DNA from: Candidatus Nitrosoabyssus spongiisocia
Lineage (GTDB): Archaea; Thermoproteota; Nitrososphaeria; Nitrososphaerales; Nitrosopumilaceae
Assembly: GCA_033471095.1 (NCBI GenBank)
Contig: CP136752.1
Location: 1,220,217-1,236,585, forward strand
Direction: 5' to 3'
DNA length: 16,369 bases
Shown here piece by piece: positions 1,312 through 16,277 of this stretch. The notes beneath the pieces were generated by a model that was not told the origin of the DNA, searched no databases, and worked only from the letters and a program-made list of their open reading frames with translations. The position numbers were made by a program, and so were the translations under genes. Numbering within the stretch: position 1 is the first letter of the stretch; every line of letters begins with the position of its first letter.

Positions 1312-1851
1312 TTAACTTACAGTGATACTTCCAACCATCCATGGATGGACTTGGCAATAATAGTCAAAAGTTCCAGTGTTTGTAAATAATTGTGAAAATG
1401 TAGTACCGCTAGCAAAGATTGAACTATCCCAACCATTTGGATATGCCTCACCTACTAGATTTGGATTTTCTTGAAGATTACCTGTAGTTACTGTGTGTAC
1501 TGCGATATCATCGTTAGTCCAAGTTACAGTATCTCCCACATTGATTTTTGCGTTAGATGGTGAGTAACATATATCGTTTTGTACACAATCCGGTGATCCA
1601 GCTCCATTAGGTATTGAAATAAGAACTCTTTTTGGAGCAGTATCTTTTTTTATCTTTTCTTCCATCATCATTTTCTCCATCATTTTCTCCTCTTCCATCA
1701 TTTTCTCCTCTTCCATCATCATTCTATCCGTGTTTTTATTATAATCTGCTGAACTGTCATCTGCCAAGCCAGACCATACAACTGCTACACCTACACCGAC
1801 AAATACAATAGCGATTGTCCACAACATGGCAGCTTTATCTACTGAAGTCAT
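1312..1851 (-). CDS. Membrane-anchored plastocyanin-like type-1 (blue) copper protein
   Basis: N-terminal hydrophobic anchor AAMLWTIAIVFVGVGVAVVW. C-terminal cupredoxin signature: VGDTVTWTNDDIAVHTV (His ligand) and FDYYCQVHPWMVGSITV (Cys-x2-His-x2-Met). Its stop abuts the uvrC stop (TAATTA, 1309-1314). Confidence 0.85.
   Translation of the reverse strand: MTSVDKAAMLWTIAIVFVGVGVAVVWSGLADDSSADYNKNTDRMMMEEEKMMEEEKMMEKMMMEEKIKKDTAPKRVLISIPNGAGSPDCVQNDICYSPSNAKINVGDTVTWTNDDIAVHTVTTGNLQENPNLVGEAYPNGWDSSIFASGTTFSQLFTNTGTFDYYCQVHPWMVGSITVS
1654..1722 (-). repeat. Met/Glu/Lys low-complexity linker (MMMEEEKMMEEEKMMEKMMMEEK) inside the cupredoxin gene
   Basis: Directly visible reiteration of catcattttctcctcttc-type units. 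It lies between the TM anchor and the cupredoxin domain. Confidence 0.8.
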
Positions 1852-1981: not shown

Positions 1982-3073
1982 ATGTTGAATAAATTAAAAT
2001 TTGGAATCCAAAATGGGTTAAATGTAGCCAGAGCTGGATATTCTATTGATCAAATACTTACTGCGTGTATGTTGGCAGACAAAACTGGTTATGATTCTAT
2101 TTTTTACATGGATCATACAAACGTACCACAATGGAAAAACGCAACTGTACTTGATCCCTGGGTTATGTTATCTGCAATTGCCGCAGTTACACAAAATGTT
2201 GAACTTGGAACATGTGTGACAGATGCCATTCGTCGTCACCCATCAAACATATCTCTTGCAGCAATTACCCTTGATCGTGTCTCCAAGGGACGAGCTATAC
2301 TTGGTATAGGTGCAGGAGAAGCACAAAACCTAAAAGAATTTTGCATACCTTTTGAAACACCTGTAAGTAAATGGGAAGAGCAAATTCAAGTTATTAAAAA
2401 ATTATACACATCAAACCCAGATAATGTGGTAGATTTTGATGGAAAATATTATCAACTAAAAGGAGCTTGTCTGCAAGCTGCCCCTATTCGTAAACCATAT
2501 CCACCAATATACATGGCAGCTGGAGGTTCGCGAACATTGAGATTAACTGGTAAATATGGTAATGGTTGGCTTCCAATTGGATATACCCCAGAGTTGTTTG
2601 AAGATCACGCAAATAAGATTAAAGAGTCAATGGATTCAAACAATCGATCTCAGGAGGAAAAGGATAATTTCCAATATGCTCTTGACATTGATGTTTATTT
2701 TTCCGAAGATGCCGAAGAGTCTTGGGCAAAGATGAAAGAGGCAATAAAAGTAAGCCTTTTCAAACCCGAAGTATTACGTGTACATAATCTTAAAGAAATT
2801 CAAGGTTTTGATTTCAAAAAATACTTTACAGAATACTCTATGTCAAATCAAGAGTGGATTGTAAAGATGCGAGAGGCTGCCACCACAATTCCAGATAATA
2901 TAGCACGTTCATCTATCGGAGTCGGTACGGTTGACGATATAATACCCGTATTTGAGAAATTCATGAACAAAGGCGTAAATCACTTTGTTATTAGATTTTG
3001 GGGCAAGAATTATTTTGGCAGTATTGATAAATTTGCCAGTAGCGTAATGCCACGTTTAAAAGAACTTGTCTAA
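1982..3073 (+). CDS. Luciferase-like monooxygenase (LLM) family, probable F420-dependent oxidoreductase
   Basis: 363 aa. It has an LLM-type TIM-barrel pattern: KFGIQ...GYDSIFYMDH, ...RAILGIGAGEAQNLKEFCIPFE...WEEQIQVIKKLY, ...PPIYMAAGGSRTLRLTGKYGNGWLP. Cofactor and substrate are not determinable from sequence. Confidence 0.8.
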   Translation: MLNKLKFGIQNGLNVARAGYSIDQILTACMLADKTGYDSIFYMDHTNVPQWKNATVLDPWVMLSAIAAVTQNVELGTCVTDAIRRHPSNISLAAITLDRVSKGRAILGIGAGEAQNLKEFCIPFETPVSKWEEQIQVIKKLYTSNPDNVVDFDGKYYQLKGACLQAAPIRKPYPPIYMAAGGSRTLRLTGKYGNGWLPIGYTPELFEDHANKIKESMDSNNRSQEEKDNFQYALDIDVYFSEDAEESWAKMKEAIKVSLFKPEVLRVHNLKEIQGFDFKKYFTEYSMSNQEWIVKMREAATTIPDNIARSSIGVGTVDDIIPVFEKFMNKGVNHFVIRFWGKNYFGSIDKFASSVMPRLKELV

Positions 3074-3103
3074 TTTTTAATTATTTTAATAATACTAAAG
3101 TTA

Positions 3104-3133
3104 GGTTCTGTTGCAACTTTGGGTGTTACTCAT
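3104..3133 (+). repeat. Copy 1 of a ~30-nt dispersed motif (subtype 1): ggttctgttgcaactttgggtgttactcat
   Basis: Matches copy 3 at 24/25 of the first 25 nt, and the reverse complement of copy 4 at 22/25. It lies 30 nt after the LLM gene stop. Its function is unknown. Confidence 0.75.
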
Positions 3134-3172
3134 AAATCAATGAATTATAATTGTTATTATAAAAACAGTAAA

Positions 3173-3367
3173 TTATACCACAAATGTGTTCACAAATTGT
3201 AACGAATCAATAATGTATTTCCTTGTTAATGGCAGTCCTGATACAATCTTAGAATTATATTTTTTGCTTTTCATAACACTGCAACAGTTAGGCACACTAG
3301 GGGACTCGCTCAGATGCCCATTTACGATTTTATACAAATCTCTTGCGTGTATTTCTATTTGTGACAC
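3173..3367 (-). CDS. Hypothetical small protein (64 aa, GTG start)
   Basis: ORF only. Its composition looks more protein-like than the overlapping plus-strand ORF 3186-3407. I recognised no family. Confidence 0.25.
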   Translation of the reverse strand: MSQIEIHARDLYKIVNGHLSESPSVPNCCSVMKSKKYNSKIVSGLPLTRKYIIDSLQFVNTFVV

Positions 3368-3408
3368 TCCGTTCTGCCTAGCGTCATTCGTTCATAATAT
3401 TCGATAAA

Positions 3409-3928
3409 TTGTCAAACTTTAAAATTATTGGTATATCAATTATGGCCATCATCATAAGTTTGGGATTTGTGGCTTTGACCACACTATCTATTTCAAATAT
3501 TCCCAGTATTAATGAATATGTTGGTCTTTATGACAAAAGTGTCGAATTATTAAACAAGATGAAAGAAGTACAGAAACTAAACAATGAATTGATACAGTTA
3601 GAATCTTACGCAAATGCTGCAACCTTAGAACGTGATAAACTTTGAGACAGTTCAATAAGATATATGCTGAAATCACCACAGAGTATAATGAAGAGTATAT
3701 AGTCTATTAAACACTCTTTTGACAAGATACTCTACAAATGATCAATGGGATCGTTATGATGAAATTTTACAGTATATGACCGTATTAGAAAATAATTATT
3801 TAAAAGATACCAATGCTCATAATGCTCATTTGAGTAATTATTTTGATGATCTTTTAACATAACGTTCAACATATAATAACAAATACGGTGATTTGGCAAA
3901 TAAGATATCTGATATTATTGACAAGTAG
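3409..3928 (+). pseudogene. Fragmented gene for an N-terminally anchored coiled-coil protein
   Basis: ORF 3409-3645 encodes a TM helix (IIGISIMAIIISLGFVALTTL) plus a coiled-coil-like segment. Coding-like sequence resumes in another frame (STNDQWDRYDEILQYMTVLENNYLKDTNAHNAHLSNYFDDLLT, from 3731). An in-frame TAA at 3860-3862 interrupts it, and it continues RSTYNNKYGDLANKISDIIDK to the TAG at 3926-3928. Confidence 0.35.
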
Positions 3929-3988
3929 TGAATAAAATGTATTTGAGATTCTTTTTTATACACTGGATAAAAACGGAGACAAAATAAC

Positions 3989-4180
3989 ATGGATGTTTTA
4001 TTGATTGTATATCTCACGATTAATATTTTGATTGCGTATATCAATCAAGCAGATCTATCTTTTACACATTATCTTGGCAGATATGGATTTTATATTCTTC
4101 TAGCAGGATTATTAATTTATGGTTCATATATGTTGATTACAAGAAATAGTGATAAATCCAAGAAGAATCAAAAGAAATAA
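3989..4180 (+). CDS. Hypothetical small membrane protein (63 aa)
   Basis: Two hydrophobic segments (VLLIVYLTINILIAYI and FYILLAGLLIYGSYMLI) and a Lys-rich tail. ORF evidence only. Confidence 0.4.
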   Translation: MDVLLIVYLTINILIAYINQADLSFTHYLGRYGFYILLAGLLIYGSYMLITRNSDKSKKNQKK

Positions 4181-4209
4181 AATTAAAATAGAGATTATAG
4201 TATCGCTCC

Positions 4210-4239
4210 ATGAATAGCACCCGAATTTGCAATAGAGCC
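4210..4239 (-). repeat. Copy 2 of the ~30-nt motif (subtype 2, inverted); reverse complement ggctctattgcaaattcgggtgctattcat
   Basis: Matches the reverse complement of copy 4 at 23/25 core positions. It lies 30 nt after the stop of ORF 3989-4180. Confidence 0.75.
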
Positions 4240-4462
4240 TTTACTATGATTATTAACAATTAACTCATTGCCACTAGTACCAAGTTTATTTGGTGTGGAT
4301 TTTACAGATATGTCACATAAATAGTCGGCAAATATCTCAGATTGAGTTTTTAAATTAATAGTATCAGATTCGTCATATTGCATATATCAAATATTTAATT
4401 TTTTTCCATCACATCATTGTGGTCAAAATTAGATTTGAGTGAAATGATTTTATGTAAAGAAT

Positions 4463-5383
4463 TTAAGATACGAGTTTGACAGATTTAATTTTTTTATGTA
4501 GATAAACAAATGCCAATGTTGGTAGACCAACATAAATTAGCAAGTTGATAGCAATTACAAGTAATCCCAAAGCCAACACACTATTCTCCGAGTCATCTAC
4601 CATCGTCATTATAGATACACTAGAGAGTAGAGGATATAGAATAGTCTGAATTATTTCACGCAGTAGAGGGTTTTCACGCTCAGCATCTGCAATTACAGGT
4701 GAAAAGGTGTAATAGATTTGGTTGAATGATGTTATGAAGGATATTCCAGGTAGACTAGTCATTAAAGTTGTATCACGTATCTCTCTGAGCATTTGTACTT
4801 GTTGTGAAAGCTCAGTTCCATATACTGCTGTTGCGATTAGACAACCACCTTTACCAGGAGAAGTGGTAGTAGAGTTATCATCCTTTATGGTTTTATCATC
4901 CTTTATGGTTTTATCATCCTTTATGGTTTTATCATCCTTTATGGTTTTATCGTCCATCATAATATCATCATCCTTTATGGTTTTATCGTCCATCATAATA
5001 TCATCATCCTTTATGGTTTTATCATCCTTTATGGTATTATCGTCCATTATGGTACCGGTAGATGTAACAGGTAATGTAGAATCAAAAGTGATGGAACCGG
5101 TGGGTTGAGAAATATCTACTAATTTTTGTTCACTTGTAAAGAAAGTATTAGAGTATACGCTAGCCTTTACAAATACAAAGCGTTCATCAGAAGACACTAG
5201 ACCCAAATAGACGACTCTATCAGAGTAGGGCTGTGTTAGGGAGAGTTGAGTTTTAATTACTCCTAGTTTGGAACTACTAATAGTAACAAAAGCATCATCA
5301 GATGATGGGCTAGCAATAATTTCAACTAGTTTTTTATCATCAGCTGACTTCCCAAGATACTTTGTGAATAATAGCCTCTGCAA
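4463..5383 (-). CDS. CFI-box-CTERM-type membrane-anchor protein with an acidic (DDKTIK)n linker
   Basis: C-terminal block GGCLIATAVYGTELSQQVQMLREIRDTTLM...FNQIYYTFSPVIADAERENPLLREII. It is followed by hydrophobic segments (VLALGLLVIAINLLIYVGLPTLAFVYL) and a basic tail. This matches my memory of the CFIATAAYGS...VQ.LR.FRD CFI-box C-terminal domain. There is no signal peptide. The called TTG start sits directly after a stop codon and overlaps the upstream ORF by 44 nt. Confidence 0.7.
   Translation of the reverse strand: MQRLLFTKYLGKSADDKKLVEIIASPSSDDAFVTISSSKLGVIKTQLSLTQPYSDRVVYLGLVSSDERFVFVKASVYSNTFFTSEQKLVDISQPTGSITFDSTLPVTSTGTIMDDNTIKDDKTIKDDDIMMDDKTIKDDDIMMDDKTIKDDKTIKDDKTIKDDKTIKDDNSTTTSPGKGGCLIATAVYGTELSQQVQMLREIRDTTLMTSLPGISFITSFNQIYYTFSPVIADAERENPLLREIIQTILYPLLSSVSIMTMVDDSENSVLALGLLVIAINLLIYVGLPTLAFVYLHKKIKSVKLVS
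4878..5057 (-). repeat. Ten tandem 18-nt units (tcatcctttatggtttta, variant tcgtccatcataatatca) encoding DDKTIK / DDDIMM
   Basis: Counted directly. Four perfect units run from 4878 to 4949. Interleaved variants follow to 5057. The array is in frame (6 aa per unit). Confidence 0.9.
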
Positions 5384-8300
5384 TTATTGGGGCTTGACCA
5401 CCAGTGAATATACGACCTGCGCCGCCGCCTCCTGAGCTACTGCCATCACCACTACTAGTAAATGGAATAGGTGCAGGTACTTGAGTACTAGTGGCACCGG
5501 TGGAAGATGTTAGAGCATAGGTGGATAGGTGAGTGGTGTAAATTGTTACATGAGTGTTGTCATCTACAAAACATTCGTTTGTGGAAGTAGTGGTTAAAAG
5601 AGTATTAATTTCTGCGATATTACTAGTACCACAGGATGACATCTGGGTTGGTGTAGAGCCAATAGTATTTACATAATATGCATTATAATTATTTCCACCT
5701 TGATTTTCAAATACAATAGATACAACTGTATCACCTAGGTTGAGATCAATTGTTACATCTCCCAAAGTTATAGCTGTAATCGTTACATGACTAGTAGTAG
5801 TCTGACCTGCAGTTGTAGATGGTACAGTAATAGTAGCAGTACGTGGTGCAAGGAATTGCGAATCCCAAGTACCATCATGAGTAATAATAGTACTAGTAGG
5901 TATCATGACTGTAATGTCATTAGTAGATACAAGTTTGGCAGTTAATCCTGCAGTGATATTAGTAGTGTTTAAAGTAGTAGCGATATAATTGATAGTAACA
6001 TTTTGATGTTCAGGTGTAACAATTAATGGTACGTCTATATGAAGAAGTGTAGGAGACACCATCTGATCGCTTGATGTAACGTTACTTTGGACGTTTAAGC
6101 TATTTTCTGTATTAAATATACCATTATTTACAGCGTCTAAAACAGAATCTGTAGGAAAATGTACATTAGCTCCAGAACTATGTTGTAGATTTGTGTTAAC
6201 CACATGTTCAGATATATTGTTACTAAAAGTAAAAACCAAAGTAGGATTGTTTGTAGAATCAACATTAGTAGTAGTGAATGCTCCTGAAGTTATACCCAAT
6301 CGTGATGAATTAGGTATGATTACATTTTCACTAAATGTAACAGTTAGAGTATGTGCTAAAGTGTCATATATTGGAGTATTAACGACTGTTGGTCGTATAG
6401 TGTCACGAACAACTATAATTCTATTTACTTGAACGGCATTATTTCCTGCCGAATCAACAGAGTTGTATGTGATGGTGTAATTGCCTACAGTATCTGTATC
6501 TACAGTGTCACCACCAATGACGATAGGAGAGTCATCATCAGTAGTGGCGTTTTGCTCATTATATGTGGAGTTTATGTTTAGTGTTATGGTACTACTGCCA
6601 TTCAGTGTGATTACTGGGGGAATAGTGTCACTAACAACTATAGTTCTATTCACTTGGGTGGCATTATTTCCTGCTGAATCAACAGAGTCATAGGTGACGG
6701 TATAATTTCCCACGAGAGATGAATTTACAGTGTCACCACCAATGACGATAGGAGAGTCATCATCAGTAGTGGCGTTTTGCTCATTATATGTAGAGTTTAT
6801 GTTTAGTGTTATGGTACTATTACCATTCAGTGTGATTACTGGGGGAATAGTGTCACTAACAATTACAAGCCTATTCACTTGGGTGGCATTATTTCCTGCT
6901 GAATCAACAGAGTCATAGGTGACGGTATAATTTCCCACGAGAGATGAATTTACAGTGTCACCACTAATTGTTACTGGAGAGTTATCATCAGTAGTGGCGT
7001 TTTGCTCATTATATGTAGCGCCAACAAATAGTGTTATGGTACTATTGCCATTCAGTGTGATTACTGGGGGAATAGTGTCACTAACAATTACAAGCCTATT
7101 CACTTGGGTGGCATTATTTCCTGCTGAATCAACAGAGTCATAGGTGACGGTATAATTTCCCACGAGAGATGAATTTACAGTGTCACCACCAATTGTTACT
7201 GGAGAGCCATCATCAGTAGTGGCGTTTTGCTCAGAGTAGGATGAGCCAAGTTCTACATAAACAGTAGCATTACCAATTAGTGTGATTACTGGGGGAGTAT
7301 CATCTGGTGCATCAGAAATTATTACAGTTCTATCAACTTGGGTGGCATTATTTCCTGCTGAATCAACAGAGTTGTATGTGACGGTATAATTTCCCTTGAG
7401 AGATGAATTTACAGTGTCACCACCAATTGTTACTGGAGAGTTATCATCAGTAGTGGCGTTTTGCTCATTATATGTAGAGCCAACAAATAGTGTTATGGTA
7501 CTATTGCCATTCAGTGTGATTACTGGGGGAATAGTGTCACTAACAATTACAAGCCTATTCACTTGGGTGGCATTATTTCCTGCTGAATCAACAGAGTCAT
7601 AGGTGACGGTATAATTTCCCACGAGAGATGAATTTACAGTGTCACCACCAATTGTTACTGGAGAGCCATCATCAGTAGTGGCGTTTTGCTCAGAGTAGGA
7701 TGAGCCAAGTTCTACATAAACGACATTATTACCATTCAGTGTGATTACTGGGGGAGTAGTATCTGAAATGTTGTTAATTACAGGTTGATTCACAAAGTTT
7801 TCTAGTGTTATGTCAGTATTTTGAGTAGAGTTTATTCCACCACTAGTTTTAGTATATGAGATAATTATGGTTTCATTTGCCAAGAGATTTCTGCTTAAAT
7901 TCAGAGTAATTGAAGAGGAGTTTGATGTTATACTATCTATTGTAGCAGATGTTCCATTAAGAGCAAAGTCGGTTATAGTGGCCGAGTAAGTAATGTTTTC
8001 ATTAAAAGTAATTATAATGTTATCACCTTGTGTATTGGTAATAGCAGAAGTTATCACTACACTTCTATCTTCAGGTGTAGATATAGTAAAGAAAGTAGAA
8101 GGAGAGTTTTGATTTGCATACTCTGTTGCAATCCAGTCTGCAGAGCGAGCAGTAGATGATAGTCGGAATTCATCTAATTTGCCATTAAAGAATTGATTAA
8201 ATACCCAATTGATTTTTCCAATATAGTTTGTTGTTCTATTCACATCATTAGATGTATGCACAGCACCACTAGTAATTGAGGTACCATTGTGATAAATAGT

Positions 8301-8582
8301 TGCTGTACCTGATGATTCATGTACAACTGTAAAGTATGCCCATTGACCTTTCTGCAAAACACCACTAATTGTGACATTCTGAGATACGTTACCTCTTAGC
8401 ATATCATATGTCAAATCCGTGTTAGCATAAGGGGAATAATCCAATATAGGGCTTTGAAATACAATATTGTCTTGTGCCAGACCATTGCCAAAATCAACGA
8501 ATCTAGCAAAACCTCTATTGCCACCAATATTTGCCCATACCGAGATGGTAAAGTCTGTATTGTAGAATAGACTACCTGCCAA
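5340..8582 (-). CDS. Large surface protein segment: LamG (concanavalin-like) domain + Ig-like repeat + 6x DUF5011/HYR-like Ig repeats + Thr/Ser/Asn-rich beta-rich C-terminal half
   Basis: LamG motifs: FTISVWAN, GQWAYFTVVHESSGTATIYHNG, FNGKLDEFRLSSTARSADWIATEYANQ. Six 75-78 aa repeats follow the pattern PPVITLNG..Y.EQNATTDD.SPVTIGGDTVNSS.VGNYTVTYDSVDSAGNNATQV. N-x-S/T sequons are very dense. The called TTG start is mid-domain, and the frame stays open upstream to 8759. No signal peptide or anchor is present. Confidence 0.8.
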   Translation of the reverse strand: MAGSLFYNTDFTISVWANIGGNRGFARFVDFGNGLAQDNIVFQSPILDYSPYANTDLTYDMLRGNVSQNVTISGVLQKGQWAYFTVVHESSGTATIYHNGTSITSGAVHTSNDVNRTTNYIGKINWVFNQFFNGKLDEFRLSSTARSADWIATEYANQNSPSTFFTISTPEDRSVVITSAITNTQGDNIIITFNENITYSATITDFALNGTSATIDSITSNSSSITLNLSRNLLANETIIISYTKTSGGINSTQNTDITLENFVNQPVINNISDTTPPVITLNGNNVVYVELGSSYSEQNATTDDGSPVTIGGDTVNSSLVGNYTVTYDSVDSAGNNATQVNRLVIVSDTIPPVITLNGNSTITLFVGSTYNEQNATTDDNSPVTIGGDTVNSSLKGNYTVTYNSVDSAGNNATQVDRTVIISDAPDDTPPVITLIGNATVYVELGSSYSEQNATTDDGSPVTIGGDTVNSSLVGNYTVTYDSVDSAGNNATQVNRLVIVSDTIPPVITLNGNSTITLFVGATYNEQNATTDDNSPVTISGDTVNSSLVGNYTVTYDSVDSAGNNATQVNRLVIVSDTIPPVITLNGNSTITLNINSTYNEQNATTDDDSPIVIGGDTVNSSLVGNYTVTYDSVDSAGNNATQVNRTIVVSDTIPPVITLNGSSTITLNINSTYNEQNATTDDDSPIVIGGDTVDTDTVGNYTITYNSVDSAGNNAVQVNRIIVVRDTIRPTVVNTPIYDTLAHTLTVTFSENVIIPNSSRLGITSGAFTTTNVDSTNNPTLVFTFSNNISEHVVNTNLQHSSGANVHFPTDSVLDAVNNGIFNTENSLNVQSNVTSSDQMVSPTLLHIDVPLIVTPEHQNVTINYIATTLNTTNITAGLTAKLVSTNDITVMIPTSTIITHDGTWDSQFLAPRTATITVPSTTAGQTTTSHVTITAITLGDVTIDLNLGDTVVSIVFENQGGNNYNAYYVNTIGSTPTQMSSCGTSNIAEINTLLTTTSTNECFVDDNTHVTIYTTHLSTYALTSSTGATSTQVPAPIPFTSSGDGSSSGGGGAGRIFTGGQAPIIAEAIIHKVSWEVS
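6408..7766 (-). repeat. Six tandem coding repeats, period 225 nt (one of 234), DUF5011-like Ig domains
   Basis: The copies fall into subtypes a,b,a,b,c,c. Subtype a reads VYVELGSSYSEQ..DDGSP. Subtype b reads ITLFVG.TYNEQ..DDNSP. Subtype c reads ITLNINSTYNEQ..DDDSPIVIGG. This indicates a higher-order duplication. Confidence 0.9.
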
Positions 8583-8759
8583 GTCTGGAAGATCAAGATA
8601 ATTTACGTAGTCTGGGTATAATCCATAAAAGTTTAATCCATTACCAATTTGTGCAGATACTGAATTATTAGGGCTAAAGGCAAAACGGTTTGGAGTCTGT
8701 GGTGTTGCATGACAATCATTCCCTGATGAGTCTAGGGTAGAGTTTGCAGTAAAAGTGGA
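8583..8759 (-). other. 177-nt nominally intergenic stretch that is stop-free, in frame with both neighbouring ORFs, and encodes the N-terminal strands of the downstream LamG domain
   Basis: My translation: STFTANSTLDSSGNDCHATPQTPNRFAFSPNNSVSAQIGNGLNFYGLYPDYVNYLDLPDL. It runs straight into (L)AGSLFYNTDFTISVW. There is no ATG, GTG or TTG within these 59 codons. Confidence 0.65.
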
Positions 8760-11162
8760 TTAATCCATGTGATAAATTATTTCATAGTCTGAATCCCAAA
8801 CATTATCATGTATAATAGTTGCCGCTAATGAGACATTATAATACATGTAGAGTATGGTATCACTGGTATTGCTCAAAGTAGGTAGACGAACCCAAGCTAC
8901 TAGAGTACCGGTAGTAGCATTATTAGTAAATGACTCAATTTCATGCTGTAATATAGTAAATCCATCACTGCTAGTGAAAATAATATCGGCTCCGTTAGGC
9001 AGAACAGCTGAATTGTTCAAAGCAGAATCAGAGATACTTACTAGAAGGGTAAAGTTTTGAAGAGTTGTAGTTATTTGGTTACTGTTAATAGTAATTTTCT
9101 GTCTAGTATCCCACAAGGAAGGTAAATCAAAAAATTGAACATTATTAGTGATTGGTTGATTTGTAAAGTTTGCAAGTGATAAATCATTCACGTTTGTAAT
9201 ATTACTAGTTGTTTGATTATATGATACTGTTAATGGCAATACAGGTGGAATGTTAGAGTCTAGTGTTAGATTGATGGCAGTGTCATTATGTCTAGTTATA
9301 CTAGTTGTAGCAATACCTGAAATACTTACTGCAAAGTCAGTTGGAGAAGTGGTATTGGTAAGAGTGACTACTTTATCAAAGTTGACAGTTATGTTGTCAC
9401 CTCGCTGGTTTGTGTAAGCGTTAACAAAGATTGGAGGTGGTAGAACATTATTAGTGATTGGTTGATTTGTAAAGTTTGCAAGTGATAAATTATTTACGTT
9501 TGTAATACTACTAGTTGTTTGATTATATGATACTGTTAATGGTAATACAGGTGGAATGTTAGAGTCTAGTGTTAGATTGATGGCAGTGTCATTATGTCTA
9601 GTTATACTAGTTGTAGCAATACCTGAAATACTTACTGCAAAGTCAGTTGGAGAAGTGGTATTGGTAAGAGTGACTACTTTATCAAAGTTGACAGTTATGT
9701 TGTCACCTCGCTGGTTTGTGTAAGCGTTAACAAAGATTGGGGGTGGTAGAACATTATTAGTGATTGGTTGATTTGTAAAGTTTGCAAGTGATAAATTATT
9801 TACGTTTGTAATACTACTAGTTGTTTGATTATATGATACTGTTAATGGTAATACAGGTGGAATGTTAGAGTCTAGTGTTAGATTGATGGCAGTGTCATTA
9901 TGTCTAGTTATACTAGTTGTAGCAATACCTGAAATATTTACTGCAAAGTCAGTTAGAGAAGTGGTATTGGTAAGAGTGACTACTTTATCAAAGTTGACAG
10001 TTATGTTGTCACCTCGCTGGTTTGTGTAAGCGTTAACAAAGATTGGAGGTGGTAGAACATTATTAGTGATTGGTTGATTTGTAAAGTTTGCAAGTGATAA
10101 ATTATTTACGTTTGTAATACTACTAGTTGTTTGATTATATGATACTGTTAATGGTAATACAGGTGGAATGTTAGAGTCTAGTGTTAGATTGATGGCAGTG
10201 TCATTATGTCTAGTTATACTAGTTGTAGCAATACCTAAAATATTTACTGCAAAGTCAGTTGGAGAAGCGGTATTGGTAAGAGTGACTACTTTATCAAAGT
10301 TGACAGTAATATTGTCACCTTGCTGGTTTGTATAAGCACTAACAAAAATTGGAGGTGGTAGAACATTATTAGTGATTGGTTGATTCACAAAGTTTTCTAG
10401 TGTTATGTCTGTATTTTGAGTAGAGTTTATTCCACCACTAGTTTTAGTATATGAGATAGTGATGATTTCATTTGCCAAGAGATTTCCTCTTAAATTCAGA
10501 GTAATTGAAGAGGAGTTTGATGTTATACTATCTATTGTAGCAGATGTACCAGTAAGAGTAAAGTCAGTAGTAGGAATAACCGAATAGATAATGTTTTCAC
10601 TAAAAGTAATTATAATGTTATCACCTTGTGTGTTGGTAATAGCAAAAGTTATCGCTACACTTCTATCTTCAGGTGCAGATATAGTAAAGAAAGTAGAAGG
10701 AGAGTTTTGATTTGCATACTCTGTTGCAATCCAGTCTGCAGAGCGAGCAGTAGATGATAGTCGGAATTCATCGAATTTGCCATCAAAGTAGGAATCAGTT
10801 CCCCAATTGGATCTTCCGATATAGTTTGATGCTCTATTCACATCAAGAGATGTATGTACGGTATCACTAGTAATTGAGGCGCCATTTTTGTAGATAGTTG
10901 CTGTACCTGATGATTCATGTACAACTGTAAAGTGTGCCCATTGACCTGTCTGCAAAACGCCTCTAACTGCGATACCCAGAGAGTAGGCACCCTGTAGCAT
11001 ATTATATCTTAAACCATGGATAAGTTCATAGTAAGCAAATAGAATATTGTCTTGTCTCTCACCATTGCCAAAATCAACGATTCTAGCCTGACTTTTAATG
11101 GCATCAATATTTGCCCATGCCGAGATGGTAAAGTCTGTATTGTGGAATAGACTACCTTCCAA
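8760..11162 (-). CDS. Large surface protein segment: LamG domain + Ig-like repeat + 4x 102-aa Ig-like (SwmB/Big_5-like) repeats + C-terminal DUF2341 domain
   Basis: The LamG region is similar to that of the downstream ORF. DUF2341-like block: LWDTRQKITINSNQITTTLQNFTLLVSISD...NGADIIFTSSDGFTILQHEIESF...LVAWVRLPTLSNTSDTILYMYYN...VWDSDYEIIYHMD-stop. The called TTG start is mid-LamG, and the frame is open upstream to 11339. No signal peptide is present. Confidence 0.8.
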   Translation of the reverse strand: MEGSLFHNTDFTISAWANIDAIKSQARIVDFGNGERQDNILFAYYELIHGLRYNMLQGAYSLGIAVRGVLQTGQWAHFTVVHESSGTATIYKNGASITSDTVHTSLDVNRASNYIGRSNWGTDSYFDGKFDEFRLSSTARSADWIATEYANQNSPSTFFTISAPEDRSVAITFAITNTQGDNIIITFSENIIYSVIPTTDFTLTGTSATIDSITSNSSSITLNLRGNLLANEIITISYTKTSGGINSTQNTDITLENFVNQPITNNVLPPPIFVSAYTNQQGDNITVNFDKVVTLTNTASPTDFAVNILGIATTSITRHNDTAINLTLDSNIPPVLPLTVSYNQTTSSITNVNNLSLANFTNQPITNNVLPPPIFVNAYTNQRGDNITVNFDKVVTLTNTTSLTDFAVNISGIATTSITRHNDTAINLTLDSNIPPVLPLTVSYNQTTSSITNVNNLSLANFTNQPITNNVLPPPIFVNAYTNQRGDNITVNFDKVVTLTNTTSPTDFAVSISGIATTSITRHNDTAINLTLDSNIPPVLPLTVSYNQTTSSITNVNNLSLANFTNQPITNNVLPPPIFVNAYTNQRGDNITVNFDKVVTLTNTTSPTDFAVSISGIATTSITRHNDTAINLTLDSNIPPVLPLTVSYNQTTSNITNVNDLSLANFTNQPITNNVQFFDLPSLWDTRQKITINSNQITTTLQNFTLLVSISDSALNNSAVLPNGADIIFTSSDGFTILQHEIESFTNNATTGTLVAWVRLPTLSNTSDTILYMYYNVSLAATIIHDNVWDSDYEIIYHMD
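9137..10360 (-). repeat. Four tandem near-identical coding repeats, period 306 nt (102 aa)
   Basis: The landmark gaacattattagtgattggttgat recurs at 9137, 9443, 9749, 10055 and 10361. Unit: NQPITNNVLPPPIFVNAYTNQRGDNITVNFDKVVTLTNTTSPTDFAVSISGIATTSITRHNDTAINLTLDSNIPPVLPLTVSYNQTTSSITNVNNLSLANFT. Confidence 0.9.
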
Positions 11163-11339
11163 GTCTGGAAGATCAAGATAATCTCCGTTGTTGTTGTCTA
11201 CTCCATCAAAGTTTAGTCCATTACCAATTTGTGCAGATACTAAATCATTAGATTCAAAGGGAGTAGAGCCTGTAGATAGTGGTGTTGCATGACAATCATT
11301 CCCTGATGAGTCTAGGGTAGAGTTTGCAGTAAAAGTGGA
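11163..11339 (-). other. Second 177-nt stop-free in-frame stretch encoding LamG N-terminal strands
   Basis: My translation: STFTANSTLDSSGNDCHATPLSTGSTPFESNDLVSAQIGNGLNFDGVDNNNGDYLDLPDL, then (L)EGSLFHNTDFTISAW. It has the same length and frame as 8583-8759. The ends are identical, and the centre is diverged but still open. Confidence 0.65.
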
Positions 11340-12748
11340 TTAATCCATGTGATAAATTATTTCATAGTCTGAATCCCAAACATTATCATGTATAATAGTT
11401 GCCGCTAATGAGACATTATAATACATGTAGAGTATGGTATCACTGGTATTGCTCAAAGTAGGTAGACGAACCCAAGCTACTAGAGTACCGGTAGTAGCAT
11501 TATTAGTAAATGACTCAATTTCATGCTGTAATATAGTAAATCCATCACTGCTAGTGAAAATAATATCATCTCCGTTAGGCAGAACAGACTGAATTGTTCA
11601 AAGCAGAATCAGAGATACTTACTAGAAGGGTAAAGTTTTGAAGAGTTGTAGTTATTTGGTTACTGTTAATAGTAATTTTCTGTCTAGTATCCCACAAGGA
11701 AGGTAAATCAAAAAATTGAACATTATTAGTGATTGGTTGATTTGTAAAGTTTGCAAGTGATAAATCATTCACGTTTGTAATATTACTAGTTGTTTGATTA
11801 TATGATAGTGTTAATGGTAATGCAGGTAGAATGTTAGAGTCTAGTGTTAGATTGATTGCAGTGTCATTATGTCTAGTAATACTAGTTGTGGCAATACCTA
11901 AAATATTTACTGCAAAGTCAGTTGGAGAAGTGGTATTGGTAAGAGTGATTTCTCTATCAAAGTTGACAATTATGCTGTCACCTCGCTGGTTTGTATAGGC
12001 GTTAACAAAGATTGGATATGATGGAACATTATTAGTGATTGGTTGATTTGTAAAGTTTGCAAGTGATAAAGTAGGATCTACACTATCAGTGATATTTGTG
12101 CCTGTATCGTTGTATGATAAAAGTGGAGAGTCGTCAAAAGATAGGGTAGAGTTTAGTGAAAGAATTATAGAAGTTGCATTATTACTAGTTATACTATTCA
12201 CAGAAGTGGATGAATTAATTATAGCAAAGTCGCTAAGGAATGTAGTACTACCTACTGTAATATTTTTAGAAAATACAACAATAATATTGCTACCAGTTGT
12301 ATCAGTATACACTCTACTAGGAGGATTCAGAGCTGACATTATTTGTTACACTAGAAATATTAATGGAACCAGAAGGGTGACCATCAATTCTTATCAGAGT
12401 CTGAATAGATGTATAAGATAGACTAAGACTAGTAGTAGGAGTTATGGGCGGAGATACAACTATGGCGATAGTATTAGCGTCAACATTATAAAAATCAGTT
12501 ATGTTATAGTTGGCAGGATTAAACACAAAAGATGAATTTAAATTAGTCCGAGTAGCTAAATCCGTGTATGTGATATTGGAACGAATCGGCACAGATATAG
12601 TTATCGTATCACCATCAGTATTAGTAGATGCATTTATAGGTGCATATTGTCCAAAAGCAGAATCTAGTGGAAAGAGCAAAGTGGCAGAGAGAACGATAAT
12701 AGCAGTTAAAGAGAGAGTCATCACATATGAATGATAGACATTATGCAA
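11340..12748 (-). pseudogene. First module of the surface-protein locus (signal peptide + Ig-like repeats + DUF2341), disrupted by two frameshifts
   Basis: Signal-peptide-like start MTLSLTAIIVLSATLLFPLDSAFGQ; the ATG at 12721 is likelier than the TTG at 12748. The frame changes near 12325-12345 (...ISSVTNNV | NPPSRVYTDTTGSNIIVVF). It changes again at an extra A at 11588: agaacagActgaattg versus agaacagctgaattg in the paralog at 9001-9015. After that, the DUF2341 sequence continues open in the locus frame to the TAA at 11340-11342. Confidence 0.65.
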
Positions 12749-12793
12749 TATTTATCAAAAATAATAAAATGATTTATAATTGTTTGTTTGATG

Positions 12794-12823
12794 GGTTCTG
12801 TTGCAGCTTTGGGTGTTATACAC
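12794..12823 (+). repeat. Copy 3 of the ~30-nt motif (subtype 1): ggttctgttgcagctttgggtgttatacac
   Basis: One mismatch to copy 1 in the 25-nt core. It lies 45-75 nt upstream (on the minus strand) of the surface-protein locus start. Confidence 0.75.
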
Positions 12824-12863
12824 ATAACTTCTTTTTTGAACTTTAATAAAAAATTTATAATTT

Positions 12864-13500
12864 CTAAAAATTAACTGCACTTTTACCAAGTGCTGGTTTA
12901 CGCAGTTCATCTCGTTTACGCATCTTTTCTATTTTCTCAGATTTACGTATTCGTTTTATTTCTCCTTGTTTAGAATCATCCACATATAGACTATTTATCA
13001 GTTTTTTAAAATTTTTTCTACTTTGGCTTTAGTAGGAAATTCAGCCTCCATTTGACATTATATACTCTGACTAGGTAAACATCCAAAATTATTCTCATTC
13101 AGAATTTTAATTAAAAAACTATACACTGTCGATTCAGGATATCTAATTCTAACCAAAGCGGTATAACCATTCTTGAAATTATCACCTATGATTTTTGTAC
13201 CACCATACACAAAAGAGGCGACATTATTTTCCTTGATGAAATTATTCGAATATATATTAAATTGTTTGTAGTAGTTGAAAAATAATCTCTTGAATATATC
13301 ACACCCTTTTTTGTAGAAAAAAATAGTCGTTCTGCATACACTACTACTCCTTTGTATCTGAATTTCAATACTGCCTCCAAGTTAGAATTCACAGCCCTAT
13401 ACATCAAAGAATAGAATTCATGAATCATCATTTTCCTGTTTACTTTTTGTATTAGATCTAGTTTCACTGTAATTTTCATATGTAAGTGGACCAATTCCAT
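12864..13500 (-). pseudogene. Decayed gene for a ~210-aa protein with a C-terminal HTH-like segment
   Basis: ORF 13186-13500 continues in another frame as CDIFKRLFFNYYKQFNIYSNNFIKENNVASFVYGGTKIIGDNFKNGYTALVRIRYPESTVYSFLIKILNENNFGCLPSQSI-stop. The frame switch is plausible at the T6/A7 homopolymers (13307-13323). GYTALVRIRYPESTVYSFL resembles resolvase/IS-type HTH motifs. Further fragments follow stops and a shift: QMEAEFPTKAKVEKILKN and NSLYVDDSKQGEIKRIRKSEKIEKMRKRDELRKPALGKSAVNF. Confidence 0.45.
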
Positions 13501-13602
13501 CTCCTCTCTATTCCATTATGTTCCATTCGATTTACCCTCAAAGTCTGTTTTGATTTATGATGAAAGCGTTTTTGATTATATCTAGTAATTCACCTAAGCA
13601 TT

Positions 13603-13824
13603 ATGCAAATAATCGAAAGTGTAAATATTAAATTATTCCAGGGAGGATATATTTCAAATATGAATAATGATGGAAGATGTGTAATAATTAATCATACTGA
13701 TATTGTAAGTGCTACTGTGATTAACCATTTGCAAGTTTTTGAATCTTATACAGGTAAAGGACTTGTGTATGTGTGTGTAAAAATCACACAATTCGAAGAG
13801 CAGATTGCAAGCATATACAATTAG
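13603..13824 (+). CDS. Hypothetical protein (73 aa)
   Basis: ORF only. I recognised no family. Confidence 0.25.
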   Translation: MQIIESVNIKLFQGGYISNMNNDGRCVIINHTDIVSATVINHLQVFESYTGKGLVYVCVKITQFEEQIASIYN

Positions 13825-13886
13825 TCAAATGTATAGTGATTACAAATAGAGGATATACGAATAATAATTTTAGAATAATGGAATAG

Positions 13887-14739
13887 ACTAGACTGAATCT
13901 GTGTAAATACTGTAATTCAGGTAATATCAAAAAGGATGGTATGAGGAACAGCAAACAAGGAAAAATACAACGATTCAAATGTTTAGATTATAATAAACGC
14001 TTTACATCAAATTTTGAATTTGAGGGTAAACAATCTGATTCAAAAATAATTACAGGTGCATTACAAATGTATTATTCAGGTATGTCAGTTGGAGATATTT
14101 CAACACATTATGAGTTTGATACTGATGTGAATCGTTCTACTATGAATCGCTGGATTGCCAAATACCCTGTAATGTTAACTAGATACCTAGATGAAATCAT
14201 ACCACGTGTTGGCAATTGGATTCGTGCTGATAAAGTATGAATAAAGATGTCAGGTAAACCAAAATATCTATTTGCACCTATGAATAATGACACTCGTTTT
14301 GGTTTAGTTAAAGACATGGCCGATACTAAATTTCAGCACAATGCAGATTATTTGTTGAAACTGACTAAATTGACTACTGGGAATAAAACACCCAAGCATT
14401 TTATCACAGATGGATTACCATCATAGGGTAAATCGTCAAGAAGAGTATTTGGCAGAGAAACACAATATGATAAAAATATACACTTGAAAGGTGAGATGAA
14501 TAACAATATGATGGAACGTCTAAATGGTGAGATTCGTGATTGTAGGAAAGTGTTTAGAGGATTGAAGAGAAGATAGTCTGATTATTAATGGTGTGACAGT
14601 GTATTACAATTGTGCCAAAAAGTATAGTGGTATTGACAATAAGAGACCATCTAAGAGAGCAAAGATAACTGTCAAGGGTCGTAACAAGTGGAATACTTTG
14701 ATACAGAGTGCAAGTTTGCATGATTATGATACTATCTAA
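13887..14739 (+). pseudogene. Degraded DDE transposase (IS remnant; archaeal zinc-ribbon + DDE type, IS6/IS240-like by motif; family uncertain)
   Basis: Open from 13887 with no start codon: CKYCNSGNIKKDG...GKIQRFKCLDYNKRF, where the second zinc pair reads C-x2-Y. WIRADKV-TGA-IKMSGKPKYLFA sits where ADE.W.K.kGk.yLfa is expected (stop at 14238-14240). ITDGLPS-TAG-GKSSRRVFG sits where DGL.sY is expected. NNNMMERLNGEIRDCRKVFRGLKRR is followed by a stop and frameshift near 14570. The tail reads IINGVTVYYNCAKKYSGIDNKRPSKRAKITVKGRNKWNTLIQSA to the TAA at 14737-14739. Confidence 0.7.
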
Positions 14740-15525
14740 TTTTTGGGGCAAAATTTTCAATTAAACCTTTCATTGCATTATGACATTTCTTCATATCCTT
14801 GTTAATAGAGTCAGACTCTAATTGCTCAATATTGCATTCACTACATTTATCAGCATTCATATGGATTTTGTCATGTTTGCCACATAATTTTCCATTTGAT
14901 TCTAACGTTGGATCTAATCTAACGAGTCATTCAACATTAAACATACTCAAATAATGAAACATTGTACTGTGATTTATAATAAGATCAGCAAGGTGCACTT
15001 TATCAGATATGTCCTAAAATTAATTCATCGCTCATTGGTCTTATCCCAATTAGGATAAAAACATAATAATTTCAATTTGTTAAAATTGTCAGTATAGACA
15101 TTTAATTGCTTGAATATATCCTCATACTGTGATGACACCTGTTCATTGTAGGTTATATCAGTATCTTTCAATCCCTCAGTTGCCTGCTCATATTTATCAC
15201 GAGATAAAGTTTACTATTTTATAATAATAGATTGGTAAAGTATCCTGCTTTCTTGTGATGATTAAGAAAATGTTTCATCCAGTAATCTTTTGTAATATCT
15301 TTTTTCTCAAAATGGAAATTACATAATGTGCACATTAGATGATTATTCATGGGATAAACATGTTAATGAAATTGCTGACTGATATTCAAATTTATCACAT
15401 AGTATGTCACTATGATTCATTAAAGATTTTGCATATTTTGCACTATATCTAACACTATTCCATATATTTTTATGAGAAATATGGATTTTAGAATCATCGG
15501 ACACGATTATTTTTAAATAATTCAT
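14732..15525 (-). pseudogene. Heavily decayed gene of unknown family (fragments in three frames)
   Basis: Fragments, in order:
- MNYLKIIVSDDSKIHISHKNIWNSVRYSAKYAKSLMNHSDILCDKFEYQSAISLTCLSHE-stop
- NNHLMCTLCNFHFEKKDITKDYWMKHFLNHHKKAGYFTNLLL-stop
- SRDKYEQATEGLKDTDITYNEQVSSQYEDIFKQLNVYTDNFNKLKLLCFYPNWDKTNER-stop
- DISDKVHLADLIINHSTMFHYLSMFNVE-stop-LVRLDPTLESNGKLCGKHDKIHMNADKCSECNIEQLESDSINKDMKKCHNAMKGLIENFAPKIR-stop
A HEPN/AbiV-like reading is only a faint impression. Confidence 0.4.
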
Positions 15526-15571
15526 ATATTTAGATCGGTAATGATGTTTTTAGTATTAAATTATTAGAACC

Positions 15572-15601
15572 ATTAATAACACCCGAATTTGCAATAGAAC
15601 C
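15572..15601 (-). repeat. Copy 4 of the ~30-nt motif (subtype 2, inverted); reverse complement ggttctattgcaaattcgggtgttattaat
   Basis: It differs from the copy 1 core only at the three subtype positions (7, 14, 17). It lies 43 nt upstream of the ATG at 15645 and is followed immediately by c + TAAAGT. Confidence 0.75.
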
Positions 15602-15644
15602 CTAAAGTAGAATATTTTTTAATGTGTATTTATAATGATAATTT

Positions 15645-16277
15645 ATGCAACATGTTGGAAAATTAAAAATTAAATCTATGGATAAAATTAGAGAGTTTCT
15701 AAATGAGGAACACGTCGGTAGAATTGCAAGTATTGATGATAAAGGATATCCACAGATAATACCTATGAATTTTGTTTATCTGCATGATTGTATCTATATG
15801 CATTCATATCATAGAGGTGAGAAATTAGAGAACATATTACAATGCTCAAAGGTGGGTTTTGAGGTAGATAGAGAATTAGAGTTTCTTCCATCATACTTTA
15901 AAAATCCACACGACGCGTCTCTTGCTGATACTCTATACATTAGTGTGGTGATTAAAGGTAATGGAGAATTGGTAGCGGATATGAAAGAAAAGACAGTTGC
16001 GTTAAACGGATTGATGGCAAAATATCAACCAGAAGGCAGGTATGATTTGGTGAATAGTGATGATAAAGTAGTTGATGCTGTAGCAGTGATAAAGATTATT
16101 CCTGATATAATTACTGGGAAATATAATATTGGACAAAATTTATCACAAAAAGATAGATTAATTCTTGCAGAGAATATACTTGAGCGTAACTCTACTACTG
16201 CAAAAAACACATTGCAAATAATGGGATTTGATGTAGTTGCCGATACATTGAAGATGAATAATATCTCTGAATGGTAA
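15645..16277 (+). CDS. Pyridoxamine 5'-phosphate oxidase-like (split-barrel) FMN-binding family protein
   Basis: The N-terminal pattern REFLNEEHVGRIASIDDKGYPQIIPMNFVYLHDCIYMHS...GEKLENI is typical of the PNPOx-like / Pyridox_ox_2 family. Met-12 (15678) is an alternative start. Confidence 0.75.
   Translation: MQHVGKLKIKSMDKIREFLNEEHVGRIASIDDKGYPQIIPMNFVYLHDCIYMHSYHRGEKLENILQCSKVGFEVDRELEFLPSYFKNPHDASLADTLYISVVIKGNGELVADMKEKTVALNGLMAKYQPEGRYDLVNSDDKVVDAVAVIKIIPDIITGKYNIGQNLSQKDRLILAENILERNSTTAKNTLQIMGFDVVADTLKMNNISEW

Follow-up and report, generated by a model that had tools for sequence, protein, structure and literature searches.

The locus described here lies in a window of 16,369 nucleotides (the whole stretch of DNA that was analysed) from Candidatus Nitrosoabyssus spongiisocia, an ammonia-oxidising archaeon of the Nitrosopumilaceae with a genome of 1.45 Mb. 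The archaeon lives in symbiosis with the glass sponge Aphrocallistes beatrix, and its metagenome-assembled genome (MAG), a nanopore/Guppy/Flye assembly, is based on R10.4 reads (PMC11525543). The locus is bounded by two host genes, one encoding a luciferase-like monooxygenase (LLM) on the left and the other a PNPOx-like flavoprotein on the right (Table 1). Between them are found, from left to right, an element bounded by inverted repeats (arm A), a giant adhesin-like gene and a second element bounded by inverted repeats (arm B), which contains a dead transposase gene. The segment from 3104 to 15601 is an insertion, and is very probably a fossil pseudo-compound transposon of the IS6 family, of the IS26-like kind, placed in an LLM-PNPOx spacer of about 65 bp.

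The ends of both arms are formed by four copies of one motif (c1 to c4), which are the terminal inverted repeats (IRs) of an IS6-family insertion sequence (IS; GGYTCTRTTGCA...). The 22-nt pattern GGYTCTRTTGCARMTTYGGGTG is matched exactly at 3104(+), 4239(-), 12794(+) and 15601(-), against 0 matches expected, and no further match was identified in the window at up to three mismatches, nor any in 200 shuffles. All four ends conform to GG(Y)TCT(R)TTGCA(R), with GG tips and the CTGTT and GCAA motifs, in agreement with the description of the IS6 family as carrying IRs of 15-20 bp, a GG tip, conserved cTGTt and caaa motifs and 8-bp target duplications (PMC7986276). They are identical at 13-14 of 16 positions to the IS257/IS431 repeat GGTTCTGTTGCAAAGT (the IS431-type sequence is printed in PMC10581047) and at 11-13 of 14 positions to the repeat of IS6100. 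The end types pair, c1 with c3 (28 of 34 positions identical) and c2 with c4 (29 of 34). The tip of c2 has changed from GG to GA in strains L001 and L010. An open reading frame (ORF) of 62 amino acids (aa), at window 4195-4383 on the minus strand, is called in all strains; it runs from the cargo into c2, with its last 14 residues encoded by the IR, and is probably a spurious or hybrid ORF made by the junction.

The two arms are in direct orientation, as follows from their collinear right ends and from the pairing of the end types. With blastn, A 901-1034 was aligned to B 2606-2742 (63% over 139 bp, E 2e-7) and A 1091-1136 to B 2762-2808 (81% over 47 bp), the right 240 bp being collinear. In IS6-family pseudo-compound transposons the flanking IS copies are always direct repeats (PMC7986276). 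The cargo segment between the arms (4240-12793) holds exactly one gene, that of the adhesin, with 72 bp between c3 and its start and 223 bp between its end and c2.

The transposase pseudogene of arm B is accompanied by non-transposase genes of about 830 bp and 860 bp on either side. With its stops masked, the reconstructed transposase scored 29.5 bits for PF13610 (DDE_Tnp_IS240), above the cut-off of 27, and its best NCBIfam family was NF033587 (transpos_IS6), with 76.8 bits over 201 of the 202 profile positions. The equivalog cut-off of the latter (125) was not reached because of decay; P0006, an intact homologue 59% identical to the pseudogene, passes it with 126.8. The pseudogene is likewise 59% identical (E 1e-105) to a Nitrosopumilus 'IS6 family transposase' of about 370 aa, and it encodes a DDE transposase of the IS6/IS240 type. 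Its stops were also identified in contigs of the same species from a HiFi metagenome and in the array contig L105 described below; being common to the HiFi contigs, stops and frameshift are real. The AbiV-like gene, with stops masked, lies just above the threshold of PF18728 (27.3 bits vs 27.1) and below that of TIGR04498 (23.5 vs 27), and it gave no match in PADLOC; the broken ORF at the other side of the transposase had no match in Pfam or PADLOC. Their position inside the IRs suggests that these genes are passengers of arm B. Both the transposase gene and the AbiV-like gene have decayed to pseudogenes in all strains. The use of TGA as a sense codon was considered as an explanation of the decay and ruled out, since with the standard code the flanking genes and the long ORFs of the adhesin are read normally.

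The outer junctions of the insertion read CTAAAGTTA followed by GG on the left and CC followed by CTAAAGTA on the right. These flanking copies are one 8-mer that differs by a 1-nt indel (an extra T in the left copy, found in all strains) and stand one base out of register; the string CTAAAGT is shared between 3095-3101 and 15602-15608. A direct duplication of 8 bp, as in the IS6 family, thus flanks the outer tips, with a single TCAAAGTA in the related genome L102 described below. At the inner junctions TTTACTAT after c2 and GTTTGATG before c3 differ. An earlier reading of the window, made from its letters only (the sequence-only reading), had noted a 6-nt repeat TAAAGT at 3096-3101 and 15603-15608, the left copy 2 nt outside c1 and the right copy directly after c4, and no duplication at the inner junctions. 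The positions are confirmed, with TA separating the left TAAAGT from the GG tip at 3104 and the right one coming after AGAACC+C, where the tip of c4 is at 15601; the absence at the inner junctions stands too. The length does not, as the shared string has 7-8 nt and the duplication is CTAAAGTA with the 1-nt indel. That reading had itself cautioned that a coincidence of this 6-mer is not negligible; TAAAGT alone is weak evidence, with 32 copies in the window. The proportion of random junction pairs with a 7-mer shared within 2 nt of both junctions was 0.17% for pairs taken on the window sequence and 1.5% for an extremely AT-rich model; from sequence alone the evidence of the repeat is suggestive, not decisive.

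An empty site was identified in L102 (ERZ25072740), a 460-kb contig of a sister species that comes from another sample and was found by a search with the PNPOx protein. Its gene order is that of the window (UvrB-UvrA-UvrC-plastocyanin-LLM-PNPOx-Cu-oxidase-tubulin-like), the flanking DNA is 84-89.5% identical, and no IR motif was found in 20 kb. In the alignment the left flank of the window matches as far as ...AAAGT and the right flank from AAAGTA... on, the two overlapping on one TCAAAGTA, and the homology stops precisely at the GG tips, that of c1 on the left and that of c4 on the right. The LLM-PNPOx spacer of L102 is 67 bp long. Excision from the window would leave the LLM stop, 21 nt, one 8-bp repeat and 35 nt to the ATG of PNPOx (about 64 bp), the compact spacer that had been anticipated. 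Among 80 species representatives of Nitrosopumilaceae, PNPOx lies 6-1805 bp downstream of LLM in 60; the spacer has 6-76 bp in seven of these outgroups, and most others contain three small ORFs (about 1-1.2 kb), which are unrelated to anything in the island. The IR motif was absent from the LLM-PNPOx gap of all 60. The empty site of L102 and the adjacency without motif in the outgroups therefore indicate that absence is the ancestral state and that 3104-15601 was inserted, with duplication of an 8-bp target.

These results agree with most of what the sequence-only reading had put forward. The 12.5-kb insertion is borne out by L102 and by the outgroups, the synteny check that it had proposed giving LLM and PNPOx side by side with a single octamer TCAAAGTA. 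The composite-transposon-like structure is upheld by the IS6 IRs, the IS6 transposase pseudogene in B, the direct arms and the 8-bp duplication, and the adhesin as cargo between two arms by the one giant gene found there. By the proposed comparison of composition the island is not marked as foreign, with a GC content of 0.337 vs 0.344 in the flanks, and the arms are not separated from the flanks by GC or by tetranucleotide usage. Tetranucleotide usage of B correlates with the flanks at r = 0.94-0.95, flank against flank at 0.96 and the adhesin at about 0.8, this last difference being due to its richness in repeats. Once the empty site is known, the result on composition does not matter.

The same spacer contains a further fragment in a distant Nitrosopumilus (L062, OZ250170.1, positions 12127-12336). 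This is a C-terminal piece of an IS6-like transposase located in the LLM-PNPOx gap of that genome, 38% identical to the window pseudogene over 70 aa, similar by eye to the C-terminus of P0006 and without a recognisable IR. It suggests that the spacer was hit more than once.

Table 1. Features of the window, with coordinates, strand and supporting evidence
Feature	Position	Strand	Evidence or remark
UvrC	25-1311		Host gene, left side
Plastocyanin-like protein	1312-1851	-	Host gene, left side
Luciferase-like monooxygenase (LLM), left host gene, intact	1982-3073	+	PF00296, E 1.9e-51
Left target-site duplication copy CTAAAGTTA, 8 bp + extra T	3095-3103	.	Abuts GG tip of c1; aligns to single TCAAAGTA in L102; identical in all HiFi strains
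Arm A, 1136-bp IR-bounded element	3104-4239	+	Right 240 bp homologous to right end of B
c1, terminal inverted repeat, outer end of arm A (GGTTCTGTTGCAACTTTGGGTGTTA...)	3104-3137	+	Exact pattern match; 14/16 identical to IS257/IS431 IR (PMC10581047)
c2, terminal inverted repeat, inner end of arm A, right-end type	4206-4239	-	29/34 identical to c4
Giant adhesin-like surface protein gene, sole cargo gene	4463-12721	-	Pfam Laminin_G_3, Bact_surface_Ig-like, SWM_repeat; LamG, Ig-like/DUF5011, tandem repeat domains
Arm B, 2808-bp IR-bounded IS6-family element	12794-15601	+	Extra genes both sides of transposase
c3, terminal inverted repeat, left IR (IRL) of arm B	12794-12827	+	72 bp upstream of adhesin start codon; strain variants seen
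Broken ORF inside B (104-aa ORF 13186-13500 + continuation)	12870-13500	-	Conserved in strains
IS6-family DDE transposase pseudogene	13603-14740	+	3 in-frame stops and at least 1 frameshift
AbiV-like (HEPN) abortive-infection pseudogene, putative passenger of B	14741-15525	-	PF18728 HEPN_AbiV; multiple stops
c4, terminal inverted repeat, right IR (IRR) of arm B, outer right end of insertion	15568-15601	-	Exact pattern match
Right target-site duplication copy CTAAAGTA	15602-15609	.	Alignment to L102 empty site
PNPOx-like flavoprotein, right host gene, intact	15645-16277	+	PF12900 + PF01243

The insertion was also identified in other strains of the same species. An identical LLM protein is present on 16 contigs, and the island is carried by all 10 that were listed, which belong to the HiFi metagenome ERZ20067936. 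The three contigs that span the whole island have identical outer junctions. Compared with the window, the flanks of the strains are 99.7-100% identical and the arms 95.5-99.6%, and the IR tips are mutating. This pattern fits a fixed, dead element under neutral drift.

A different arrangement is found in L105 (ena:ERZ25072740:ctg109156_2x_l), a contig of 24 kb that shares its sample with L102 and was retrieved by a search with the C-terminus of the adhesin. Its positions 1-17944 comprise an array in which two adhesin genes alternate with two elements of the B type, all in one orientation; the order is adhesin, full B-type element (from IRR to IRL), adhesin, B-type element. On the cargo side the flank of c2 is conserved, with 98.6% identity over 630 bp, and so is that of c3. 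The position of arm A is occupied by a complete 2.8-kb copy of the B type, about 97% identical to B of the window; a B-type copy is thus present at the cargo junction of A in L105, and the arms of the window are alignable at their ends only. All copies of B, those of L105 included, share the same three nonsense codons, which indicates that the array was built after the death of the transposase, probably by homologous recombination of the host or by a transposase supplied in trans. Across contigs the B copies are about 97% identical, vs 84-90% for core genes between the window and L102; either L105 comes from a closer relative than L102 or the island has moved between lineages.

One of the B copies in L105 follows B of the window up to the stop of the transposase (window 14733) and departs from it directly afterwards. 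In place of the AbiV-like gene it carries a 168-aa ORF and a degenerate IR tip (L105 308), and a 211-bp piece of the interior of arm A (window 3172-3382) lies beside this copy in opposite orientation. In the window itself a weak IRR-like sequence occurs at 14746-14767, with 15 of 22 matches to the end pattern; it is located 6-27 nt past the transposase stop, where a compact IS6 element would end and where the second copy of L105 diverges. An older and shorter core IS may be nested in B, a match level of 15/22 being one that also arises by chance.

The insertion may have originated by the action of an IS6 transposase on the outermost ends, c1 and c4, where a staggered 8-bp cut would give the duplication of CTAAAGTA. 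A replicative cointegrate would probably be formed in this process and then resolved by recombination between directly repeated copies; alternatively, a resident IS could have captured a translocatable unit made of an IS plus the adhesin. Later decay comprises the three stops and the frameshift of the transposase, the breakage of the AbiV-like passenger, the loss of the transposase of A and the T added to the left duplication. The adhesin gene has remained functional, with a repeat number that varies between strains.

The same product would be given by stepwise assembly in place, where a single IS6 element entered first with its 8-bp duplication and the adhesin and a second IS copy were added later, the original duplication being left outside. 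The addition could have taken place by targeted conservative joining of a translocatable unit, as in IS26, or by homologous recombination with the resident IS. IS26 is known to act in this way (PMC7986276; PMC7885326), and the final structure would be the same, with the duplication at the outer junctions and none at the inner ones. L105 adds evidence that such units of IS and adhesin can be stacked, with the IS copy at the 3' junction of the adhesin being exchangeable; there the cargo side is 98.6% identical to the window and the IS side different. However, the intermediate expected under this route, a single IS in the LLM-PNPOx spacer, was not found; the 13 contigs of the same species all carry the complete structure, and the sister genome is empty. 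Stepwise assembly is a real but less probable alternative, insertion en bloc being somewhat more likely.

The remaining explanations are all improbable. An island ancestral to the genus could have been lost from the lineage of L102 by deletion between the 8-bp repeats, and the empty site would then be a scar; recombination between short repeats would restore one copy of the octamer, as L102 has. That is very improbable, given the 60 outgroup species with adjacent LLM and PNPOx and a gap without IS motif or adhesin, the duplicated octamer abutting GG-tipped IS6 ends, which is the signature of an insertion, and the rarity of deletions through 8 bp of homology across 12.5 kb. Slightly less credible still is a coincidence, in which two unrelated IS remnants landed independently in a hypervariable surface-protein locus and the recurrence of TAAAGT is a matter of chance in AT-rich DNA. 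The abundance of TAAAGT in the window, the copies out of register by one base and the great difference between A and B would be accommodated by this explanation, but neither arm has a duplication of its own, the breakpoints with L102 fall exactly at the outer tips with the flanks overlapping on one octamer, and the chance of a shared 7-mer at both junctions is 0.2-1.5%. The least probable origin is an island integrated by a site-specific recombinase, with the motif copies as attachment sites. Repeated motifs do occur at the island borders; however, they are inverted pairs with IS6 consensus tips and not direct att repeats, and no integrase, tRNA or Rfam match was detected in the window.

Several observations weigh against an IS6 pseudo-compound transposon. 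Regarding the arms, A and B are dissimilar, with only about 34 bp alignable at the left end and about 240 bp at the right end, and no transposase remnant was identified in A when a profile HMM made from 108 transposase homologues was run against its six-frame translation. Arm B, with 2.8 kb and genes flanking the transposase, is far above the typical IS6 size of 0.7-0.9 kb (PMC7986276), and it departs from the compact plan of the family, in which an element has a single transposase gene and a length of about 0.7-0.9 kb, in rare cases as much as 1.76 kb. Since all B copies share the nonsense mutations, the IS duplication was at least in part the work of host recombination and not of the transposase of B. 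Regarding the junctions, the two duplication copies are separated by a 1-nt indel, TAAAGT is common in the window (32 copies vs 18.9 expected, a number reached in 2 of 200 shuffles), and the empty site is known from one genome only. Regarding the ends, a second copy of this IR was not found when JGI metagenome contigs and IMG/VR were each scanned once; these scans gave five single matches in unrelated contexts of 41-67% GC. Finally, five loci with intact transposase homologues of about 60% identity (57-61%) lack this IR.

These five loci (L094-L096, L103 and L104) show no IR at up to four mismatches and no clear flanking inverted repeats, and no canonical IS6 ends were found within 3-4 kb of their transposases. 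In the three that were compared (L094, L095 and L096) homology ends at the transposase ORF. Their transposases may have different ends or be domesticated. A small ORF of about 60 aa lies upstream on the opposite strand at all five, and in three (L095, L096 and L104) the intact IS6-like transposase gene of about 370 aa adjoins restriction-modification, Mrr/HNH or ApeA-type defence genes.

Among known systems, the structure is closest in plan to the IS26/IS6 pseudo-compound transposons such as Tn6, Tn4352 and the units flanked by IS257/IS431 or IS6100, where direct IS arms surround a passenger gene. It shares with them the GG tips followed by CTGTTGCAA-type motifs, the DDE_Tnp_IS240/IS6 transposase, and the 8-bp duplication round the whole unit with none at the inner junctions (PMC7986276). 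Differences are the host, here an archaeon of the sponge-symbiotic Nitrosopumilaceae; the cargo, an 8-kb adhesin and not a resistance gene; the arms, which are dead and unequal (1.1 kb without transposase and 2.8 kb with extra genes); the conserved part of the IR, longer here with about 26-32 nt; and the class of transposase, of about 370 aa with an N-terminal region rich in Cys/His (zinc-finger-like). The array of L105 resembles the tandem arrays and translocatable units of IS26 in its IS-adhesin-IS-adhesin order, co-oriented IS copies and conserved IS/cargo junctions, but unlike those arrays all its copies carry the same inactivating stops, and a circular unit was not observed.

Arm B, with the AbiV-like gene and the broken ORF inside its IRs, is similar to the tIS (IS with passenger genes), of which ISDsp3 is the only IS6-family example cited in PMC7986276; arm A keeps a remnant of the right end. 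Unlike ISDsp3, B carries passengers in two regions, left and right of its transposase; one is of defence type, and all are pseudogenes. In the same host phylum, Krupovic et al. 2019 (PMC6563490) described DDE-type IS elements of Thaumarchaeota with 1-2 genes each, and the terms composite transposon and compound transposon are absent from the text of that paper; here, unlike in those elements, an IS pair appears to have mobilised a large host-interaction gene.

It is tentatively proposed that the IS6-bounded module of IS and giant adhesin acts as a translocatable unit, by which adhesin genes for host interaction are moved and multiplied in ammonia-oxidising archaea symbiotic with sponges. That the copies of B are more alike than the core genes is a hint of recent exchange between lineages. 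If true, this would be gene shuffling in the style of IS26 in Archaea, acting on surface proteins of a symbiosis by means of an unusually long IS6 element with a defence gene. Variable surface-protein islands are well known in marine archaeal populations, although the mechanism has been vague, and one such island can now be tied to IS6-type transposition. The pattern of the IS26-style pseudo-compound transposon is best known from antibiotic resistance in bacteria. It is extended here to the Nitrosopumilaceae, the mechanism itself being of no new kind. The locus is a case at the level of sequence of a streamlined symbiont genome gaining a large accessory surface-protein gene, with element family, target, duplication and empty site identified.

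The adhesin is an intact ORF in 13 HiFi contigs of the same species. Its length varies from 2027 to 2823 aa among these strains (L001-L010 and L091-L093), which have identical flanking genes, and this variation is due to the numbers of 225-nt, 306-nt and 18-nt tandem repeats. In the window it is split into five ORFs by five changes, of which three are 1-nt insertions and two are nonsense changes; each of them falls on an AGCT or a GATC site. When the window is compared with the HiFi contigs, 11 of 30 GATC sites differ (AATC or GATT) and 6 of 24 AGCT sites (substitution or 1-nt indel), vs 0-7% of the sites of eight other 4-nt palindromes tested. These differences include window 5346, 8760-8762, 11340-11342, 11588, 12335 and 16364. 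Their clustering at GATC and AGCT, together with the nanopore origin of the assembly, makes it most likely that the breaks of the adhesin are basecalling errors at modified bases (linked to methylation), and there is a hint of GATC and AGCT methylation in Ca. Nitrosoabyssus spongiisocia. The sequence-only reading had described everything inside the island as accessory or decayed; this holds for the transposase and the AbiV-like gene, which are dead in every strain, but not for the adhesin. Further adhesin-like fragments (P0242, P0244 and P0245), 76-82% identical to the cargo protein, were identified at other loci of the 1,455,463-bp contig to which the window belongs.

On the right side of the insertion, the AT-rich promoter region of the PNPOx gene (15610-15644) was left undisturbed. 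The PNPOx orthologue that adjoins LLM in L102 is 90% identical to that of the window; exact-protein look-ups of the window PNPOx and of the adhesin paralogue P0242 returned no record. On the left side, the UvrB-UvrA-UvrC-plastocyanin block is located upstream of LLM in the window and in L102, and downstream of PNPOx in more than 40 other Nitrosopumilaceae (L011-L090 compared). The altered place of this block is a clade-specific rearrangement beside the insertion site. Directly upstream of UvrB, L102 contains a weak fragment of an rve-type transposase.

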